The position numbers and the translations under genes were made by a program. A stretch of 64,000 bases of DNA, taken from NCBI GenBank assembly GCA_002025865.1, contig MWOR01000207.1, positions 6,106 through 70,105 of the forward strand, given 5' to 3'. Below the pieces are notes generated by a model. The model worked only from the letters and a program-made list of their open reading frames with translations. It had not been told where the DNA came from and did no database searches. Below, in pieces: positions 41,946 to 61,332 of the stretch (positions are counted from its first letter, which is position 1; every line of letters begins with the position of its first letter). The stretch comes from Prochlorococcus sp. HOT208_60m_813I02. Its GTDB lineage: Bacteria > Cyanobacteriota > Cyanobacteriia > PCC-6307 > Cyanobiaceae.

Positions 41946-42260
41946 AAAAAAAAAGGAGCTAGTTTCTACCTCATCTTGAATCTCCTATCGAGATAAAGAG
42001 ACTACATCATTTCGTATTGATCAAGTTTGGTTTTTAATTTTGTTGCTTGTTTAATCAATGACAAAGCTTCTTTTCTGCCAGTTGAATTATTAGCCTGGAC
42101 TATAAGATCTGCGTATTTCTTTGCGATTTTTTTTTGCATAATTTAAAATATTTAAATACCGTTTTTGAATCTTGCAACTAGCGAGTCGCAACCAGAAGTA
42201 GATAAGGAGTCAACGGTAAAAACCTCAGAGTCAACAAAATTGGAACGGGTTAACTCATGT
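41946..42260 (-). ncRNA. Structured, probably dual-function RNA carrying the 45-aa ORF
   Basis: Three helices in the 5' leader, two with G-U pairs only on the minus strand (42256-49/42235-28, 42218-12/42163-57, 42191-84/42179-72); NtcA box and -10 upstream; U tract at about 41946-41954. Confidence 0.55.
42002..42139 (-). CDS. 45-aa basic helical peptide, not in the ORF track
   Basis: MQKKIAKKYADLIVQANNSTGRKEALSLIKQATKLKTKLDQYEMM*; clear paralog at 60196-60330. Confidence 0.75.
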   Translation of the reverse strand: MQKKIAKKYADLIVQANNSTGRKEALSLIKQATKLKTKLDQYEMM

Positions 42261-42295
42261 TTTTAATTTATAACCAATTAATAAAAAAGCTGTTG

Positions 42296-42309
42296 GTATC
42301 TACGATTAC
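42296..42309 (-). promoter_or_regulatory. NtcA box, activator geometry
   Basis: GTA-TCTACGAT-TAC; 23 nt from a minus-strand TATAAA(T) -10 at 42272-42267. Confidence 0.65.
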
Positions 42310-42388
42310 ATTGTTTTCAAACCCTGATTTAATTTATAGTTATCCATGAATTGGATTGAAATTTTTCAATTATCTTTTTAATTCAATT

Positions 42389-42422
42389 AAAAAAAAAGGG
42401 GGTTAAAAACCCCCTTTTTTTT
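42389..42422. terminator. Rho-independent terminator of the riboswitch-controlled gene
   Basis: A9-GGGGGTT-loop-AACCCCC-T8. Confidence 0.85.
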
Positions 42423-42440
42423 ATTAAAAGACCTAATTTA

Positions 42441-42770
42441 CTAATTACCTAAACCTAGAGGAGCCCAAAGAGTTGCTTCAGAACCTATAACAGGGACAAC
42501 TCCTGTAGTTTTTGCATTAGAAACTTTATTTTTAACAATAGGAGTATCTTGTTCTCCTAAAGCTGCCCATAAAGTTGATTGATGAGCGATAACTGGTTGA
42601 ACTTTTAATGGTTGAGATTGAAAAGAGGGCTTTTGGGTTCTTACAAGTTGGACTCCAAGAGAACCAAAAATAAATGCCCCAAGAAAACCTGCAAATACAG
42701 CAGTAATATTGTTACTACTTACTGAGGTAGATACGTTATTAGACATAATAGTTATGTGACTAAATTTCAT
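42441..42770 (-). CDS. Uncharacterised single-TM protein with duplicated PVI-x4-TLWA-x-LG motif, downstream of a glutamine riboswitch
   Basis: TM segment FAGFLGAFIFGSLGVQLV; repeats PVIAHQSTLWAALG and PVIGSEATLWAPLG; alternative start at 42746. Confidence 0.8.
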   Translation of the reverse strand: MKFSHITIMSNNVSTSVSSNNITAVFAGFLGAFIFGSLGVQLVRTQKPSFQSQPLKVQPVIAHQSTLWAALGEQDTPIVKNKVSNAKTTGVVPVIGSEATLWAPLGLGN

Positions 42771-42774
42771 TTTT

Positions 42775-42833
42775 GACTGAAGTCCCCGTTCCTTGGCTTC
42801 AATCTTAATGCGGCTCGTAAAACGAGATGAACG
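42775..42833 (-). ncRNA. Glutamine-II (Downstream-peptide) riboswitch
   Basis: P1 CGUUC/GAACG, P2 CUCGU/ACGAG, CGCA linker, 8-bp pseudoknot GAUUGAAG/CUUCAGUC. Confidence 0.85.
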
Positions 42834-42837
42834 TTTA

Positions 42838-42864
42838 TGTAGTCTACGCTACATTTTAACTATA
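42838..42864 (-). promoter_or_regulatory. NtcA box overlapping the predicted TSS (repressor geometry) plus TATAGT -10
   Basis: TGTA-GTCTACGC-TACA at 42838-42853; minus-strand TATAGT at 42864-42859. Confidence 0.7.
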
Positions 42865-42931
42865 AGTTTAATTTAATTTACAAGATGTTAATGGCAATAC
42901 AAAAACTTATTAAAAAATAAGAAATTAAATT

Positions 42932-43147: not shown

Positions 43148-44209
43148 TTATCCCCCAAGATATGACATTGATGGATGAATTTTTTGATTTTTGTCAGTTG
43201 ATTTCTCTAATACTTTAAATCGATCTTCACTATAGTTATCTTCTCTAGCTTCCCAAATGCTTTTGATTTTATTTTCCAATTCATGGAGATTAATTGGTAG
43301 AGACAACCATGGGTTTAGGTTTATACCTGCATTAGAAAAAAGACATGTATAAGCATAACCATCACTAGTTATCCTCAATCTATTACAATCTGAACAAAAA
43401 GGGTTACTTATAGAAGAGATTGTACTTACAAAACTATTTGAATCACTCATGTACCATCTATTAGCAGTTTGTCCCTCCTTTCTTCCGTAGTCTTTTAATC
43501 GATATTTCTTCTTTAGTAGCTTAATAATTCTCTCAGAGAAAAAAACATCTGATGGCCGCCAATTATTAGATATCCCTACGTCCATATATTCAATGAAACG
43601 AATTTCTATAGACCTTTTTTTTGCAAAATCAACTAATTCAAAAATTTGATTATCATTAATATCTTTTTTTATAACTGCATTTATTTTTAATTTTCCCGCC
43701 TTTGGATTAAATCCAGCATTAATTGCATGATCTATTCCTTCAAGGACAGTAAATAATTTTTCTTTGCCAATAATTTTATTTCCCTCTCCAATCATGTTTG
43801 AAAAAATATCAGGATCAATCGCATCTAAACTTACTGTTATGCGGTCTAAACCATTTTTAAAAAGCTCATTAGCTTTTTTCTTAGAGAGCAAATATCCATT
43901 TGTGGTTAGAGAAATATCCTGTAAATTAGCTACTGGATTTGATTCTTCTAATCTTTGCGATTTAATTTCATAAAGAAGTTCATCTAATTGTGAACTCAAT
44001 AAAGGTTCTCCTCCAGTGATTCTTAAAGAATTTACCCCTAATCGACAACTGACTAAAATTAACTTTTTAAATTGTTCAATATTTAAAACATCCAAACTGT
44101 AGTTCTCAGGCTTACAGTAAATACATGAAAAATTGCAATTTTGTTTAAGAGATAACCTTAAAACTTTTAACTTTCTTTTTCTATTATCCTCTAATTGCTT
44201 AAATTCCAT
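43148..44209 (-). CDS. moaA: GTP 3',8-cyclase (radical SAM)
   Basis: CNFSCIYC, RITGGEP, RFIEYM, FCSDCNRLR..CL, SMSYLGG. Confidence 0.96.
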   Translation of the reverse strand: MEFKQLEDNRKRKLKVLRLSLKQNCNFSCIYCKPENYSLDVLNIEQFKKLILVSCRLGVNSLRITGGEPLLSSQLDELLYEIKSQRLEESNPVANLQDISLTTNGYLLSKKKANELFKNGLDRITVSLDAIDPDIFSNMIGEGNKIIGKEKLFTVLEGIDHAINAGFNPKAGKLKINAVIKKDINDNQIFELVDFAKKRSIEIRFIEYMDVGISNNWRPSDVFFSERIIKLLKKKYRLKDYGRKEGQTANRWYMSDSNSFVSTISSISNPFCSDCNRLRITSDGYAYTCLFSNAGINLNPWLSLPINLHELENKIKSIWEAREDNYSEDRFKVLEKSTDKNQKIHPSMSYLGG

Positions 44210-44804
44210 TATTCATATTTAAGAATTCTCTCTTGGAATTTATATTAAGTAAATCTCCATTTTTTGCATAGAAATATTTATGGGGAATTTGATCAACCCA
44301 TCCGAGAAAATTTTTCTTCCTAGAGGATAACTTTTTTTTTAATTTAAAATGATTTTCTTCATTGATGGGATAAATTCCGAATAATGGTTGTGCAAAAATT
44401 CCATCATGGGATATTACCGCAAAATTTTGATTTTCTTCCCATGATTTAAAAAGTGAATAAATTAATTTTGTATTCAAATTAGGCATATCAACTGGGATGA
44501 TTAGTATATTTTTAGTAGTTTTTTTAAAAGATGAAAAAATTTGTTCTATACAAGTTAAGGGTCCATCAAAGGGTTGGGCATCTGAAATAAACTTAACATT
44601 ATTCCTTTTATCAACTTCCTTTAAATGATAAGTATAATTTGTTACTACAAAAGTCTCTAAATTAAGATGATTTAATATTTTTATTTTGTGAGTCAGCCAA
44701 TTCCCTCCTTCATGATGTTTAATTAGTGCTTTATCAGATCCCATCCTTGAACTCTTGCCACCAGCCAAAATGAATGCTTTAAATTTTTTAAGTTTTATTT
44801 CCAT
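44199..44804 (-). CDS. mobA: Molybdenum cofactor guanylyltransferase
   Basis: ILAGGKSSRMGSDKA, GPL, PVDMP, NIN. Confidence 0.93.
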   Translation of the reverse strand: MEIKLKKFKAFILAGGKSSRMGSDKALIKHHEGGNWLTHKIKILNHLNLETFVVTNYTYHLKEVDKRNNVKFISDAQPFDGPLTCIEQIFSSFKKTTKNILIIPVDMPNLNTKLIYSLFKSWEENQNFAVISHDGIFAQPLFGIYPINEENHFKLKKKLSSRKKNFLGWVDQIPHKYFYAKNGDLLNINSKREFLNMNNGI

Positions 44805-44952: not shown

Positions 44953-44995
44953 GTATTAAATAATACAAATGAATGCATTGATCGAAATATAAATT
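44953..44995 (+). promoter_or_regulatory. NtcA-activated promoter of napA-narB
   Basis: GTA-TTAAATAA-TAC at 44953-44966, then TATAAA/TAAATT -10 at 21-23 nt spacing. Confidence 0.75.
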
Positions 44996-45023
44996 GCTTA
45001 AAAATAATATCGAAAAAATTTTC

Positions 45024-46577
45024 ATGTTAAGTGACGTTTGGTCTTTAAATGGCAGATATAGAACTCTCCACCTCACCTGGTTTGCCTTTTTCCTTACTTT
45101 TGTTGTTTGGTTTAATCTCGCACCTCTTGCAACTACTGTTAAAGCCGATTTAGGTTTATCTGTTGCTCAAATTAGAACGGTAGCAATATGTAATGTTGCT
45201 TTGACTATCCCTGCAAGAGTTTTGATTGGAATGTTATTGGATAAATTTGGCCCAAGAAAAACTTACTCAACAATTTTGATATTTTCTGTCGTGCCTTGTT
45301 TATTATTTGCTAGTGCTCAAGACTTCAATCAACTTGTTATTGCGAGATTGCTTTTATCAATAGTGGGAGCAGGTTTTGTTATCGGAATAAGAATGGTATC
45401 TGAGTGGTTCCCTCCGAAAGAAATTGGTTTGGCTGAGGGAATATATGGAGGATGGGGAAATTTTGGATCTGCTTTTTCTGCTCTTTCTCTTGTTGCAGTA
45501 GCTGGATTCTTGTCTTTTTCAGGAGGTTTTGAGTTGCCTACTGGAGCTGTACTTAATTGGAGGGGAGCTATTGCTCTTACAGGAATTATTTCTTTTGTTT
45601 ATGGAATTATTTATTTCTTTAGTGTGACTGATACGCCTCCCGGAAAACCTTATCAAAGACCTTCAAAAACAGCTGGTTTAGAAGTAACGAGTATAAAGGA
45701 TTTCTGGGGTTTAATTGGAATGAATATCCCATTCGCAGCAATTCTTTCAGTCCTATGTTGGAGACTTCAAAAAGTAGGTTTCCTTACTTCATCTACTTAT
45801 CCAATAGCCTTAATCGCAGTTTTAGCGTGGTTTATTTTCCAAACTTGGGGAATTATAAGAACGAATATTGAATTATTAAATGGAACTAAAATTTACCCTA
45901 AAGAAGATAGATATGAATTTAAACAAGTAGCTATCTTGGAATTAACTTATATTGTAAATTTTGGATCAGAATTGGCAGTAGTTTCAATGCTTCCTAGTTT
46001 CTTTGAATTTACATTTGATTTACCTAAAGCTGTAGCCGGAATACTTGCATCATGTTATGCATTTGTGAATTTAATAGCTAGACCTGCCGGAGGATTGATA
46101 TCTGACAGAACAGGCAATAGAAAAAACACAATGGGATTTCTAACTATGGGATTAGGGTTTGGATATCTATTGATGTCTTTAATAAAACCTGGAACTTTTA
46201 CAGGATCAGCAGGAATTCTTATGGCTGTATTTTTAACTATGCTTTGTTCATTTTTTGTTCAATCAGGAGAAGGTTCAACTTTTGCTTTAGTTCCCTTAGT
46301 TAAAAAAAGAGTAACAGGACAAATAGCTGGATTGGTTGGGGCTTATGGAAATGTTGGTGCGGTAACTTATCTAAATATTTATAGCCTTTTACCTTTATGG
46401 ATGGGTGGAGGTAAAGATCCTTCTCCAGAAATAATTGCTGCTTCAAATAGTGCCTTCTTCCAAGTTTTAGGTATAGCAGGATTAATAGTTGGATTCTTCT
46501 GTTATTTCTTTTTAAAGGAACCTCAGGGATCATTCGCGGATGCTTATGAAGGCGAAAAAGCTGAAAATTACGTTTAA
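45024..46577 (+). CDS. napA: Nitrate/nitrite MFS transporter (NarK/NrtP family)
   Basis: LHLTWFAFF, nitrate signature GGWGNFG, NFGSELA, ARPAGG..SD, GAYGNVG; ATG at 45024. Confidence 0.93.
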   Translation: MLSDVWSLNGRYRTLHLTWFAFFLTFVVWFNLAPLATTVKADLGLSVAQIRTVAICNVALTIPARVLIGMLLDKFGPRKTYSTILIFSVVPCLLFASAQDFNQLVIARLLLSIVGAGFVIGIRMVSEWFPPKEIGLAEGIYGGWGNFGSAFSALSLVAVAGFLSFSGGFELPTGAVLNWRGAIALTGIISFVYGIIYFFSVTDTPPGKPYQRPSKTAGLEVTSIKDFWGLIGMNIPFAAILSVLCWRLQKVGFLTSSTYPIALIAVLAWFIFQTWGIIRTNIELLNGTKIYPKEDRYEFKQVAILELTYIVNFGSELAVVSMLPSFFEFTFDLPKAVAGILASCYAFVNLIARPAGGLISDRTGNRKNTMGFLTMGLGFGYLLMSLIKPGTFTGSAGILMAVFLTMLCSFFVQSGEGSTFALVPLVKKRVTGQIAGLVGAYGNVGAVTYLNIYSLLPLWMGGGKDPSPEIIAASNSAFFQVLGIAGLIVGFFCYFFLKEPQGSFADAYEGEKAENYV

Positions 46578-46612: not shown

Positions 46613-48724
46613 ATGAATTTTACTAAAAGTCAATGCCCATATTGCGGTGTTGGCTGTGGTTTAAAAATGAAGCCTAAAAGTTCGGTTTCCGATCATAAAT
46701 GGTTAGTAAGTGGAGATAGGGATAGTCCTTCAACTCAAGGTAAATTATGCGTAAAAGGAGCAACAGTATGTGAGACTCTAAAAGATGGGAGATTAAAAGA
46801 ACCACTTTATAGGGAAAATTTAAATGAAGAATTTAAAGAAATTTCCTGGGACGAATCATACGAAATTCTGAAAGAGAATATTTTGAGTTCTATAAAAAAT
46901 TATGGACCTGATTCAATAGCTATGTATGGCTCAGGTCAATTTCATACTGAAGATTATTACGTAGCCCAAAAGCTTCTCAAGGGAGCAATAGGCACAAATA
47001 ATTTTGATGCTAATTCAAGACTATGTATGAGCTCAGCAGTAGCTGGCTATAACAGAAGTTTTGGCTCTGACGGTCCACCTTGTTGTTATGAAGATATTGA
47101 TCATTGTTCCTTAATTTTATTAATAGGGACAAATACTGCAGAATGTCATCCTGTTCTTTTTGATCGAATTAAAAAACGTAAAAGAAACGTAAATGATAAT
47201 TTAAAAGTTATAGTAATCGATCCAAGAGAAACTGAAACTTCCTCCATAGCAGATTTTTACTTACAAATTTCTTCTGGAACAGATCTTTTTTTATTTATTG
47301 GGATTGCGAATTATCTTTATAAGAATCAATTGACTGATCAATGTTTCATTGATAAGTCGACCGAAAGCTATTTTCATTTTGTAAAACATTTACAAAAATG
47401 GGATTTAAAAAAAATAAGTGAAATTTGCAATATACCCGAGAAAACAATTATTGATATTGCAAAATTATGGGGAGAAAGCAAAAATGTTCTAAGTCTCTGG
47501 TCGATGGGTTTGAATCAAAGGCAAGAGGGTACGGCAGCAGTAAATGGGCTAATAAATATTCATCTAATGACAGGCCAAATAGGCAAAGAAGGTTCTGGTC
47601 CTTTTTCCTTAACTGGCCAACCAAACGCTATGGGGGGAAGAGAAGCTGGTGGACTATCGCACCTTCTTCCAGGATATAGGTTTGTAAAAAATAAAATAGA
47701 TAGGAATGAAATTGAAAAAATATGGGGTTTCCCTGAGGGAAAGATATCTGCAAAACAAGGTCTATCTGCATTTGAACAAATAGAAGCTATAAAAAAAGGA
47801 TCTGTGAAAATTTGGTGGATTGCAGCTACCAACCCTTTGGTTAGCATGCCTAATTTAAACTTTGTAAAAAAAGCACTTTCAAAATGTCCTTTAATTATCC
47901 TCAACGAATCTTATGAACAAAGTGAATCAATTAAATATGCTCATCTAGTATTGCCCGCGGCTCAATGGAGCGAAAAAGATGGTGTTATGACAAATTCAGA
48001 AAGAAGAGTAACCCTTTGCCCATCTTTCAGAGAATCGAATAAAAATTCAAAACCAGATTGGCAAATATTTGCTGAATTAGGACAGAAGATAGGCTATTTC
48101 AAACAATTTGAATATGAATCTTCATCGGAAGTTTATGATGAATTTTTAAAAACGACTACAAAAAGATTATGCGATATGAGCGGATTATCATATCAATTAT
48201 TAAAAAATCATGGTCCTCAACAATGGCCTTATCCTAAAGGCAGCGTACCTACTACATCTTCAAAAAGATTATATGAAGATGGTTATTTCCCAACTGAAAC
48301 TGGCAAAGCAAATTTTTGTATTGATGATCCTATAGGGTTGGCTGAACCCCCTTCAGAAGAGTATCCACTAATTTTGACAATTGGAAGATATCTAAGTCAA
48401 TGGCATACAATGACAAGAACTTCTAAAGTTCAAAAACTTACAAAAAAGAATCCAGAACCGTTATTAGAAATTAATTCTAAAGATGCTTTATCTTTGAAAA
48501 TCAAAAATGATGAAATAGTAAAAATTAAATCCAAAAGAGGGGAAGTTCAAGCAAAAGTTCAGATTACTGACAAAATTAAAGCAGGTACAGTTTTTTTACC
48601 AATGCATTGGGGTTTTAGTCAAAAAAATATGTGTGAAGTAAACTCTTTGATGCATGAAAAGTCATGCCCGATATCAAAACAACCGGAATTAAAAGCATGC
48701 TCAGTAATAATTGTTCCAATCTAG
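46613..48724 (+). CDS. narB: Ferredoxin-dependent assimilatory nitrate reductase
   Basis: CPYCGVGC, LCVKG, YGSGQ, DANSRLCMSSA, LTGQPNAMGGRE, PMHWG. Confidence 0.96.
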   Translation: MNFTKSQCPYCGVGCGLKMKPKSSVSDHKWLVSGDRDSPSTQGKLCVKGATVCETLKDGRLKEPLYRENLNEEFKEISWDESYEILKENILSSIKNYGPDSIAMYGSGQFHTEDYYVAQKLLKGAIGTNNFDANSRLCMSSAVAGYNRSFGSDGPPCCYEDIDHCSLILLIGTNTAECHPVLFDRIKKRKRNVNDNLKVIVIDPRETETSSIADFYLQISSGTDLFLFIGIANYLYKNQLTDQCFIDKSTESYFHFVKHLQKWDLKKISEICNIPEKTIIDIAKLWGESKNVLSLWSMGLNQRQEGTAAVNGLINIHLMTGQIGKEGSGPFSLTGQPNAMGGREAGGLSHLLPGYRFVKNKIDRNEIEKIWGFPEGKISAKQGLSAFEQIEAIKKGSVKIWWIAATNPLVSMPNLNFVKKALSKCPLIILNESYEQSESIKYAHLVLPAAQWSEKDGVMTNSERRVTLCPSFRESNKNSKPDWQIFAELGQKIGYFKQFEYESSSEVYDEFLKTTTKRLCDMSGLSYQLLKNHGPQQWPYPKGSVPTTSSKRLYEDGYFPTETGKANFCIDDPIGLAEPPSEEYPLILTIGRYLSQWHTMTRTSKVQKLTKKNPEPLLEINSKDALSLKIKNDEIVKIKSKRGEVQAKVQITDKIKAGTVFLPMHWGFSQKNMCEVNSLMHEKSCPISKQPELKACSVIIVPI

Positions 48725-53026: not shown

Positions 53027-54550
53027 TTAGGTTTTTAACTTTGCATTAAACTTGTTGATTAAAATTTCTTTGATTAAATTATAAATTTCATGTTTACTAA
53101 CTTTTTTAAATTCTGTTTCACCTAAGGTTTGCAGGTGATCTTGTCTTCCTCCAATACTGACATTATATCCATCCTCAGTTCCACCTCCCTCTTTTTTTAC
53201 CTTTGTACCGGTCATGCCAATACCACCCATATGAGCTTGTCCACAATTATTTGGACAACCTGTCCAATGGATTTTAACCTCCTCTGATAATTCAAGTTCT
53301 CTATCTAGTTTTTCAGAAACATTCCTTGCTATATCTTTGGTATTTGCAAGAGCAAAGCTACAATATTTACTCCCTGTACATGAAACGGTACTTGCTGAAA
53401 AATGGGATGGATTTAATCTGAATTTATTAATAATTTCTTCATCACCAAATTCTTCTAAAATATTATTTTTTAGACCAACAATAATTAGATTTTGATCTTC
53501 GGTTAGTCTTACTTCACTTTGTCCATATTTTTCACTTAGTCTTGCAATTTCTTGTATGTCTTCTACACATAACCTCCCTACAGGAATATGTAATCCAGCA
53601 AAGTAAAGATTGTTTTGTTTTTGTCTATTAATCCCAAATAAACTTCTTTGTTTTTCGTTGAAAATTGAGCCTGGATCGTTCGACAAAGTTCCAAATTTTT
53701 CTTCTACAAGTTTTCTAAATTTTTCGATACCTATAGAGTTCAAATAATATCTAAATCTTCCTTTATTTCTTAGGAATCTATCTCCATTATCTCGCCAAAG
53801 GGAACAAATAATTCCAGTTATTTTGCATATATCTTTTTCTTCTACCCAGACATCTAGAGGTAAAGCATAAGCATTCAAAGTTGCTGACAATATTCCTCCT
53901 ACCCAGACACCAAAGCCTAATATTCCATTTTTAAAAACAGGATGAAAGATAATATCATTATGTAGAAGAAAATTATCTTTTGCTCCTGCAACTGCAGTAT
54001 TCCACTTCCTTGGTAAATTCGAGAATTCGGGGTTTCCATTACCAGAATTTGTTAAGTAATTTTCTAATTCAGAAGTATATTTTCTTGTATCTATAATTTC
54101 TTCAGGATCAATTCCCGCTAGTGGATTGCCAGTAACATTTCTTGGATTATCCATTCCAGACTGGACGGATGTAATATCAACCTCTCTAAGTCTTTTAATA
54201 ATATCTGGTAGATCATTTATCAAAACCCCCCTTAATTGAATATTTTGCCTAGTTGTTATATCTGCAGAACCGTCTTCTCCATATCTAGCAACTATTGACG
54301 CGATCACTCTCAACTGTTTTGAGTTTAAAATTCCATTGGGAACTCTAAGCCTCATCATAAATCTTCCGGGAGTTTTTGGTCTCCAAAAAAGGCCATACCA
54401 CTTTAAGCGCATTTGCAAATCTACTTCATCAATCTCTTCCCATCCTTTAAGAGCATAATCATCTAACTCTTTAAAAATTTTCAGACCATCTTTCTCCGCC
54501 TTTTGCTTTTCAATCTTATTTAATTTTTTATCATTTAAATAATATTGCAT
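53027..54550 (-). CDS. nirA: Ferredoxin--nitrite reductase
   Basis: RLKWYG, ITTRQNIQ, NLPRKWN, CTGSKYC, HWTGCPNNCG; start MQYYLN at 54550. Confidence 0.96.
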   Translation of the reverse strand: MQYYLNDKKLNKIEKQKAEKDGLKIFKELDDYALKGWEEIDEVDLQMRLKWYGLFWRPKTPGRFMMRLRVPNGILNSKQLRVIASIVARYGEDGSADITTRQNIQLRGVLINDLPDIIKRLREVDITSVQSGMDNPRNVTGNPLAGIDPEEIIDTRKYTSELENYLTNSGNGNPEFSNLPRKWNTAVAGAKDNFLLHNDIIFHPVFKNGILGFGVWVGGILSATLNAYALPLDVWVEEKDICKITGIICSLWRDNGDRFLRNKGRFRYYLNSIGIEKFRKLVEEKFGTLSNDPGSIFNEKQRSLFGINRQKQNNLYFAGLHIPVGRLCVEDIQEIARLSEKYGQSEVRLTEDQNLIIVGLKNNILEEFGDEEIINKFRLNPSHFSASTVSCTGSKYCSFALANTKDIARNVSEKLDRELELSEEVKIHWTGCPNNCGQAHMGGIGMTGTKVKKEGGGTEDGYNVSIGGRQDHLQTLGETEFKKVSKHEIYNLIKEILINKFNAKLKT

Positions 54551-54595
54551 ATTAATTTTTATTCTTTTATTCTTATGAGATTTTAGACAATTTAA

Positions 54596-54611
54596 TGTTT
54601 CCTTATATACA
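54596..54611 (-). promoter_or_regulatory. NtcA box upstream of nirA
   Basis: Minus strand TGTA-TATAAGGA-AACA (one mismatch). Confidence 0.55.
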
Positions 54612-54711
54612 AATGTCAATAAATATTGATTATTTTTTTGACACCGAATTCCATATTTTAGGAAACTCTTAAGCTCATAAAAACATAAAGGCTTTTTCTT
54701 GGCCGGAACAC

Positions 54712-54981
54712 TTATCCGTAATTATGAGATACTTCTGTCCATCCTTTTTGGTGTAGTTCGTGCCACTTTTCCCAGGCTGAATCTATGTTAAGTTTTTCAG
54801 AGGATTTGTACCCTCCTGGTTCTCCAAGGTGATTTGTGTAGAAAAGATGGGTATGAATTTTTAAATTAGGTTTAGGAGTATTTTTGCATTCTTCGAAAAA
54901 GATCATTCTACTTCCTTCGGGATTTAGTAGACATCCGCTTGGGATGCTAGTGCTACAACCAAATGAGTAATTAGGCTTCAT
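54712..54981 (-). CDS. DUF1651-family protein
   Basis: G.L.NP.G..I.F, GEP..K, AW..W.EL..KGW. Confidence 0.75.
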   Translation of the reverse strand: MKPNYSFGCSTSIPSGCLLNPEGSRMIFFEECKNTPKPNLKIHTHLFYTNHLGEPGGYKSSEKLNIDSAWEKWHELHQKGWTEVSHNYG

Positions 54982-55010
54982 GCTTTCACCTTAATAGGCT
55001 ATTTTAATAT

Positions 55011-60973: not shown

Positions 60974-61086
60974 TTTAGGAAATATTAAAACCTTATTTCT
61001 ACTATCTATTAAATATTTATTTTTTTAAAAAAATTTAGTAAAAATTACTCTCGCGAAATTTTTTTAAAGATGTTATTGTTCGATAA

Positions 61087-61147
61087 CGTTCATCCAAGTT
61101 TATATCTCTGGACGCATGAAATGGGAATAGGGAACGGGATTCTCATT
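61087..61147 (+). ncRNA. Glutamine-II (Downstream-peptide) riboswitch
   Basis: P1 CGUUC/GAACG, P2 CCA..UGG, ACGCA linker, pseudoknot AAUGGGAA/UUCUCAUU; extended -10 TG-T-TATTGT at 61071-61079. Confidence 0.87.
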
Positions 61148-61161
61148 AACTGCAAAAGACC

Positions 61162-61332
61162 ATGAATAACCTCTTACAAATAAGAGAAAAAATCAAAAGA
61201 GCCAATAGGCTATATGAAGCCCAACTTTTGGCTACTAAAAGTGGAGAAGTTACTCCATATAGAAGATCCGTCTTTGAAGAAAGAATCAGGAAAACACAAA
61301 AAGAAATGAAATTGAAAGACTCAAAAAATTAA
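61162..61332 (+). CDS. 56-aa basic peptide downstream of the glutamine riboswitch (DUF4278/Gif-like context), not in the ORF track
   Basis: MNNLLQIREKIKRANRLYEAQLLATKSGEVTPYRRSVFEERIRKTQKEMKLKDSKN*. Confidence 0.75.
   Translation: MNNLLQIREKIKRANRLYEAQLLATKSGEVTPYRRSVFEERIRKTQKEMKLKDSKN

Follow-up and report, generated by a model that had tools for sequence, protein, structure and literature searches.

A small membrane protein encoded beside napA (nrtP), the gene of the nitrate/nitrite permease in marine picocyanobacteria, could well act as a brake that binds the permease NapA and is translated when glutamine rises, a reading that is favoured here tentatively. The gene was analysed in Prochlorococcus sp. 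HOT208_60m_813I02 (a 1.5 Mb assembly of 281 contigs, 85% complete), in a stretch of 64,000 nucleotides of contig MWOR01000207.1 (hereafter the window), where it borders a nitrate-assimilation cluster composed of moaA, mobA, napA and narB. The name X101 was coined here for its product of 101 amino acids, a single-pass membrane protein whose gene is preceded by two NtcA-type boxes and a glutamine-II riboswitch and is followed by a terminator. Every element that a first reading of this stretch, made without database searches (the sequence-only reading), had listed for the control region, the membrane protein and the terminator was found where it had been placed.

The use of nitrate is a variable and ecologically important trait in Prochlorococcus and Synechococcus, and X101 is a concrete, testable candidate gene for a switch that adjusts nitrate uptake to cellular nitrogen status. 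NrtP has been reported to be devoid of post-translational control, in work on the permease of Nostoc punctiforme (PMC4390861), so that such a regulator is missing; that X101 is this missing post-translational brake on the NrtP/NapA of marine picocyanobacteria, translated in Prochlorococcus only when the riboswitch senses nitrogen sufficiency, is possible, if somewhat doubtful.

Association of X101 with the nitrate permease gene

The distribution of X101 follows that of napA. In a survey of 401 Cyanobiaceae genomes, X101 was detected in 111, napA in 121 and narB in 253; napA is present in each of the 111 X101-positive genomes, and X101 in none of the 132 genomes that carry narB and lack napA. 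No P-value is given for this co-occurrence because related genomes are not independent samples. Within six genera (g10, g22, g33, g47, g57 and g64) exactly the same genomes are positive for X101 and for napA, narB being more widely distributed there, and in the genus of the window X101 occurs in all eight genomes with both napA and narB and in none of the 22 that lack both. The sequence-only reading had named an equal frequency in strains without nitrate genes as the observation that would speak against a specific link to NapA; this comparison was made, and X101 is absent from these 22 genus-mates and tracks napA rather than narB. Ten napA-positive genomes have no detectable X101; four of these belong to genus g9, whose remaining matches are weak, and two are incomplete.

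X101 lies 0.3–4 kb from napA/narB in the surveyed genomes and stays within the nitrate cluster in three different gene orders. In the high-light genus of the window the order is narB, napA, mobA, moaA, o46, X101, where o46 and its Synechococcus counterpart o56 are small open reading frames (ORFs) described below. A second Prochlorococcus genus, with genomes of 1.5–1.9 Mb and probably of the low-light I type, has mobA, moaA, o56, a DUF4278 gene, X101, napA, narB, and marine Synechococcus has moaA, mobA, napA, narB, narM, o56, X101, moaC. Ammonium or urea transporters and porins, which had also been considered as targets, find no support, since X101 is a single-copy gene that is always beside napA/narB.

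Loss of the nitrate cluster involves X101 as well. Six cluster-less high-light genomes (L046, L049, L050, L060, L068 and L084) have the flanks joined directly, at points that correspond to window positions 42336–42658 and approximately 54400–55000, and the right-hand end of the deletion differs in each of them. Five of these ends fall inside X101 (window 42658, 42634, 42614, 42611 and 42537), and the sixth, at 42336, is situated just beyond its 3' end, X101 being wholly gone. The deletions thus take the promoter and 5' part of X101 along with the cluster, and decaying 3' remnants and chimeric ORFs stay behind. The variety of the deletion ends suggests repeated independent losses or erosion. 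A Prochlorococcus single-cell genome (L041:5927-6362) holds an X101 copy with 89% DNA identity that begins right after the position of the riboswitch aptamer; promoter and riboswitch are missing, and nitrate genes are absent within 6 kb of it.

Such a copy, free of cluster and cassette, is compatible with X101 being functionally unrelated to nitrate uptake: as a small, conserved protein of the membrane it would merely accompany the napA-type cluster and, in Prochlorococcus, would have picked up a spare riboswitch cassette. The napA-type and the nrtABCD-type cluster may each be inherited as a unit of its own, in which case the co-occurrence could reflect shared history among genomes that are, as said, not independent. 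This explanation is nevertheless very improbable: adjacency persists across three gene orders, presence patterns are identical within the six genera, purifying selection acts on the cassette and both of its boxes in two deep genera of Prochlorococcus, and X101 remnants decay once the cluster has been lost.

The X101 protein and its family

The X101 family is defined by an N-terminal helix of the form GFLGAF..GSL..QL, followed by one or two copies of PV[IV]-x4/5-LW-x2-LG, in proteins encoded beside napA/narB, and the protein of the window has all of these features. Family loci were collected from contigs of one genome per species, among which 84 loci were found and the best 80 kept. A short form of 63–80 amino acids has one motif (copy 1 only), and a long form of about 100–113 amino acids has two. 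In the window an alternative in-frame ATG at 42770 adds 8 residues and would give 109 amino acids; the product of 101 amino acids was adopted because almost all family members keep the second methionine and because, in the second Prochlorococcus genus, the relatives begin at the corresponding position. The single transmembrane segment and the doubled PVI-x4-TLWA-x-LG motif, predicted beforehand for a protein of 101–109 amino acids, are borne out by the ORF, by the family alignment and by the helix that AlphaFold2 models at residues 14-34. No further copy of this motif turned up when the genome was translated in all six frames.

Invariant columns cluster in the membrane helix and in the motifs, the helix being the most conserved part; its core contains small residues spaced like those of a glycine zipper and a buried glutamine. 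A conserved helix of this kind, with a small residue at every fourth position, suggests specific packing against another membrane protein.

No Pfam match was obtained for X101 even at E <= 10, nor any NCBIfam match. A profile search of a whole library of 1.84 billion representative proteins returned only 37 clusters, 35 of short proteins, of which those read were all of the picocyanobacterial type, and two of spurious long repeat proteins; in the protein atlas X101 matches only unnamed cyanobacterial clusters. Phage genomes gave no match by tblastn, so that no cyanophage copy was found. Two long HMMER matches (P0115 and P0117) were discarded as unrelated repeat proteins that aligned only via an 'NLWF'-like repeat.

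The layout of the protein also admits a role as an anchor in the membrane that, through its tail motifs, brings a soluble nitrogen protein such as the nitrate reductase NarB, PII or glutamine synthetase close to NapA, as a scaffold or by sequestration, with no action on transport itself. A disordered tail with one or two conserved linear motifs is typical of docking sites, and the charge distribution around the helix, by direct reading, favours a cytoplasmic tail; in addition, the regulatory cassette is common with IF17-like peptides presumed to bind glutamine synthetase, and X101 is always a few kb or less from narB. However, NarB is not by itself the partner, X101 being missing from all 132 genomes with narB and without napA; glutamine synthetase and PII occur universally, X101 only together with napA; and the strongest conservation lies inside the membrane, not in the tail. 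An anchor of this sort is therefore considered improbable.

Riboswitch and promoter of the X101 gene

The riboswitch assigned beforehand to the X101 leader was recovered by the Rfam covariance-model scan as a complete aptamer (model positions 1–60 of 60), with 64.9 bits (gathering score 33) and E = 2e-13. Both pseudoknot strands, CGUUC and GAACG, are the same in all 8 leaders aligned, the P1 and P2 stems are retained in the orthologues, and one P2 pair shows a compensatory change, being G-C in the genus of the window and A-U in the second Prochlorococcus genus. In the latter an aptamer stands directly 5' of X101 in the four loci examined, with 57–67 bits (Rfam). Between the two genera X101 shares only about 48% identity at the protein level and yet is preceded by the aptamer in both, which indicates that the association with the riboswitch is old within Prochlorococcus.

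Five glutamine-II aptamers were found in the source genome. In four of the five loci a GTAG-N6-CTAC palindrome lies exactly 16 nt before the aptamer and 3–5 nt after a TATAAT-like -10 hexamer, so that the cassette of -10, palindrome and aptamer occurs at three loci in addition to X101. Two of these carry cargo that matches DUF4278 (PF14105) above the Pfam cut-off, with 32.7 and 43.2 bits, one of them being the 33-codon ORF described for Yfr6. X101 itself does not belong to DUF4278, the family of the IF17-like/GifB proteins; the expectation of a cargo atypical for this riboswitch class was thus correct. The second aptamer of the window, at 61084-61329 on the plus strand (47 bits), is followed by a Lys/Arg-rich ORF of 56 amino acids with no Pfam match and, unlike the other four cassettes of the genome, has no NtcA-type box upstream.

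A perfect NtcA site over the start site of Yfr6 in MED4 was described and interpreted as repressive (Klahn et al. 2018, PMC6212724; reviewed in PMC6316151), and the type 2 aptamer of MED4, one member of the class assayed in Synechocystis, raises expression after addition of ammonium (PMC6212724). The same study mentions glutamine aptamers that precede genes without Pfam matches, with nothing further on those genes (PMC6212724). The double control by a start-site NtcA box and a glutamine riboswitch, which the sequence-only reading had called gifB-like, is present in X101 in the design published for MED4 Yfr6 (PMC6212724). Promoter, NtcA box and riboswitch are the standard cassette of IF17-like (DUF4278) peptides, and X101 as cargo is the new part. 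By analogy with its class, the X101 riboswitch would be an ON switch for glutamine.

The promoter has no -35-like hexamer upstream of the -10, by direct reading of the sequence. The perfect palindrome TGTAGCGTAGACTACA starts 5 nt past the -10 and so spans any plausible start site; a GTA-N8-TAC box over the -10 or the start site, the mark of NtcA-repressed promoters of the gifB type, is accordingly present with respect to the predicted start. Three matches to the 16-nt pattern TGTA-N8-TACA were counted in the window, with 0.86 expected. This start-site box is kept in 42 Prochlorococcus loci that were scanned and in one further locus of the second genus, and throughout these loci GTAG and CTAC never vary and the inner 6 nt do; when leaders are aligned across both genera, TGTAG and CTACA are invariant and the six inner bases differ. 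Invariant arms around variable inner bases are the pattern expected of a protein-binding site, which would here be a putative site for NtcA.

A second box, GTATTGCCATTAAC, precedes the -10. In the 42 scanned loci it has 11 sequence variants, in all of which GTA and AAC are invariant, and its distance to the -10 is 22 nt in 42 of 42, that from the -10 to the downstream box being always 5 nt; the GTA-N8-AAC box is conserved in the second Prochlorococcus genus too. A single match to it is near chance (6 observed in the window, 3.1 expected), and its distal half-site is AAC, not TAC. Canonical NtcA-activated promoters consist of GTA-N8-TAC, 22 nt and TAN3T, without a -35 hexamer, the box being centred near -41.5. 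In the window napA has an NtcA box with this activator geometry at 44953-44966, and the upstream, activator-spaced box is absent from the other three cassettes of the genome. In the X101 promoter a putative activator-type site, one half of which is imperfect, thus stands together with a perfect site of the operator type, and the net effect could have either sign.

In the second Prochlorococcus genus (L086:2350-2680), a gene of 57 amino acids resembling DUF4278 (23.1 bits, just below the cut-off) is located between o56 and the X101 cassette. Its promoter reads GTA-N8-AAC, 22 nt and TATATT followed by a perfect GTA-N8-TAC, and the Rfam scan gave no aptamer there.

The upstream peptide and the arrangement in Synechococcus

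The conserved upstream neighbour of X101 in the window, the 46-residue peptide o46, is homologous to an ORF of 53–56 amino acids (o56) situated directly 5' of X101 in Synechococcus. The o46 cluster was found on at least 999 contigs and has no Pfam match, and its product probably serves, next to X101, as another small subunit of one system.

In Synechococcus X101 starts about 25 nt after the o56 stop codon. Among the spacers between both genes (loci L051-L083, for instance L054:5914-5958) there are 23 distinct sequences, 19 of which form a hairpin with a folding energy of about -6 kcal/mol or stronger, with a mean z of -2.0 in single-sequence folds. Many of these hairpins have the o56 stop codon in the 5' arm and a stem that ends just before the X101 start, and the stems differ in sequence; RNAalifold gave no consensus for the spacer because the hairpins differ in register. 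This arrangement looks like translational coupling, and Prochlorococcus seems to have exchanged the coupling to the upstream peptide for an independent promoter and a riboswitch. The locus offers a natural before/after comparison, with one gene that is apparently coupled to the ORF upstream of it in Synechococcus and under a riboswitch in Prochlorococcus.

Approximately 60–80 nt upstream of o56, a palindrome GGTGTCAATGATGACAAC (GTG-N8-GAC) is conserved in the Synechococcus loci L052-L083, 22 nt before a conserved GATGTT; it may serve the o56-X101 pair, which is divergent from narM, as an NtcA-like activator site. Another candidate NtcA box upstream of Synechococcus X101, GTAGCGATTCAYAC, was rejected as it is inside the coding end of o56 (..PFGSDSY..FPY-stop).

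The homologue of X101 in strain WH7803, of the short form, is CAK24909/WP_011934368 and adjoins narM. MobA, NrtP and NarB of this strain are WP_011934364 to WP_011934366, and both the placement of X101 beside them and the equivalence of WP_011934368 with locus tag SynWH7803_2483 rest on accession numbering. SynWH7803_1012, a membrane protein of 112 amino acids that is strongly down without ammonium (PMC9430850), was considered as the WH7803 X101 and rejected in favour of CAK24909/WP_011934368. In the absence of ammonium, nrtP of WH7803 is about 20-fold up and a newly annotated small gene, RS12280, about 18-fold up (PMC9430850). From gene order, we take RS12280 to be the o56 homologue. The WH7803 data do not support ammonium-induced transcription of X101 in Synechococcus, nor its co-induction with nrtP.

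A proposed brake on NapA

The brake on NapA is envisaged as follows. X101 would work with NapA (NrtP) as a small single-pass membrane protein, its invariant helix most likely packing against the permease and its disordered tail bearing one or two short docking motifs. In Prochlorococcus the gene would have been detached from o46 and moved behind the cassette of the IF17-like peptides, acquiring a promoter without a -35 hexamer, with one NtcA-type box at -41.5 and a perfect one at the start site, and the glutamine-II riboswitch. NtcA at the upstream site would permit synthesis of X101 mRNA in cells where it is moderately active, such as those using nitrate; under severe nitrogen stress the start-site box would block transcription. 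The mRNA would be translated only once glutamine accumulates, and the protein would appear as a nitrate-using cell turns nitrogen-sufficient, then braking NapA. In this scheme NtcA would bind at both boxes. If it is true, a riboswitch cassette was recruited to a pre-existing gene during the streamlining of the Prochlorococcus genome.

From the cassette shared with IF17-like peptides, the glutamine-ON behaviour of the riboswitch class and the repressive type of the start-site box, we infer inhibition of NapA rather than assistance. The earlier claim that X101 is made only when nitrogen is plentiful was too simple, as it ignored the conserved box with activator geometry.

Several observations weigh against the brake. 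The geometry of the conserved upstream box is that of NtcA activation, which would mean more transcription under nitrogen limitation, the opposite of what is expected of a gifB-type gene. The ON sense of the riboswitch goes back to a single class member tested in a heterologous host. When the leader was folded, blocking the pseudoknot strands changed nothing, and no clear expression platform emerged. No aptamer was detected in ten Synechococcus/Cyanobium X101 loci searched with Rfam. In WH7803, the o56 homologue (RS12280, by gene order) is up without ammonium like nrtP, and the X101 homologue is in neither the up nor the down lists of differential expression examined (PMC9430850). The AlphaFold2 monomer built from the family alignment, at a low-confidence predicted local distance difference test score (pLDDT) of 53, consists of one helix and a disordered tail, and contact with NapA is a proposal. 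The activator box and the Synechococcus context would fit a positive accessory subunit equally well.

Such a subunit, formed by X101 together with o46, would serve the stability, assembly or high-affinity activity of NapA, much as NAR2/NRT3 does for NRT2 permeases of the same NNP family in algae and plants, and the riboswitch and boxes would only trim its amount. The strict co-inheritance of X101 with napA and its adjacency to it are in agreement with this possibility, as are the invariant membrane helix, the conservation of the activator-geometry box in Prochlorococcus, the likely coupled pair of Synechococcus, whose promoter has an activator-spaced NtcA-like box, and the induction of the upstream partner together with nrtP in WH7803. 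On the other hand, a glutamine-ON riboswitch and a start-site NtcA box, as in IF17-like peptides, are the wrong controls for a protein needed during nitrate use, and X101 has no similarity to NAR2 (Pfam). Furthermore, NrtP has also been described outside the picocyanobacteria, in beta-cyanobacteria (PMC4390861), and no X101 relative of another type was present among the matches and clusters read, which makes a modulator likelier than an obligate subunit. Overall, a positive accessory subunit appears rather unlikely.

Relationship to known regulatory systems

The closest regulatory parallels are gifB/IF17 of Synechocystis and the IF17-like DUF4278 genes Yfr6/PMM1846 of Prochlorococcus, which likewise have an NtcA box over or near the start site and a glutamine riboswitch in the leader (PMC6212724); the cassette of X101 is spaced exactly as in the DUF4278 genes of the same genome. 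X101 differs from gifB/IF17 in that it is a membrane protein, without DUF4278 and without an Arg-rich tail for binding glutamine synthetase. Unlike the IF17-like cassettes, its promoter has the additional activator-spaced box and the gene is part of a nitrate-uptake cluster. The cargo of glutamine riboswitches is in this way widened beyond soluble IF17-like peptides.

Small membrane proteins of enterobacteria tune transporters, including SgrT on PtsG, MntS on MntP, MgtS on MgtA/PitA and AcrZ on AcrB. X101 resembles them in its size of about 100 amino acids or less, its single helix, its proposed binding to a transporter and its synthesis on a metabolic signal; it differs in having no sequence relationship with any of them, in being gated by a riboswitch and not by a small RNA or by transcription alone, and in that contact with its target is proposed only. 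The NAR2/NRT3 proteins of algae and plants, of about 200 amino acids with a folded extracellular domain, are required for transport by NRT2. Like them, X101 is a single-pass protein genetically tied to a permease of the NNP branch of the major facilitator superfamily (MFS), but its tail is disordered, it has no Pfam match to NAR2 and its regulatory signals point to nitrogen sufficiency.

The job proposed for X101, a rapid shut-off of nitrate uptake at nitrogen sufficiency, would be comparable to the PII-dependent inhibition by ammonium of the ABC nitrate transporter NrtABCD (PMC10945777, PMC6603209). Transporter and mechanism are different, and NrtP-type permeases were reported to be without such control (PMC4390861). 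The regulatory design (gifB, Yfr6) and small membrane proteins that tune transporters are both already known. The X101 family with its tie to napA, the two-box promoter and the recruitment of the riboswitch in Prochlorococcus only were not found in the literature searched. We know of no earlier description of a small-protein regulator of a transporter that is gated by a riboswitch.

Features of the locus

The coordinates of the X101 locus and of the adjacent nitrate cluster are listed in Table 1. The Rfam matches of the window (IsrR, Yfr19, Cyano-1 and two glutamine-II riboswitches) are the usual set of marine picocyanobacteria.

Table 1. Features of the X101 locus and the neighbouring nitrate-assimilation genes (positions in the window; all elements of the X101 locus are on the minus strand)
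Feature	Position	Strand	Remarks
Intrinsic terminator	42389-42428	minus	G5/C5 stem flanked by A and U runs; folds at -18.8 kcal/mol
X101, single-pass membrane protein of 101 amino acids	42441-42746	minus	42441 includes the stop codon; single copy per genome
Motif copy 2, PVIGSEATLWAPLG	42453-42494	minus	residues 85-98; fits PVI-x4-TLWA-x-LG exactly
Motif copy 1, PVIAHQSTLWAALG	42555-42596	minus	residues 51-64; fits PVI-x4-TLWA-x-LG exactly
Transmembrane helix	42642-42707	minus	residues 14-35; invariant columns; sole secondary structure in AlphaFold2
Glutamine-II (type 2, 'Downstream-peptide') riboswitch aptamer	42777-42836	minus	Rfam RF01704
Perfect NtcA-type palindrome, TGTAGCGTAGACTACA	42838-42853	minus	TGTA-N8-TACA; stops 1 nt short of the aptamer
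-10 hexamer TATAGT	42859-42864	minus	read from the sequence; CATAAT in the second Prochlorococcus genus
Upstream NtcA-type box, GTATTGCCATTAAC	42887-42900	minus	GTA-N8-AAC; exactly 22 nt upstream of the -10
o46, peptide of 46 amino acids	42932-43072	minus	conserved upstream neighbour of X101; hydrophobic N-terminus (MRLAILLGFIFGV..)
moaA	43148-44209	minus	nitrate cluster
mobA	44199-44804	minus	nitrate cluster
napA (nrtP), NNP-type MFS nitrate/nitrite permease	44994-46577	plus	NCBIfam TIGR00886, 367 bits
narB	46613-48724	plus	nitrate cluster

The terminator attributed to the X101 gene by the sequence-only reading was overlooked by a simple terminator scanner and was recognised on folding, as a GGGGG/CCCCC hairpin; given its flanking A and U runs it could act both ways. 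Directly 3' of it, at 42140-42310 on the minus strand, there is a GTA-N8-TAC box with 22-nt spacing to TAAATT, followed by a leader. The loop of its first hairpin reads CCGUUCCA, complementary to GGAACGG, the pseudoknot strand of the aptamers.

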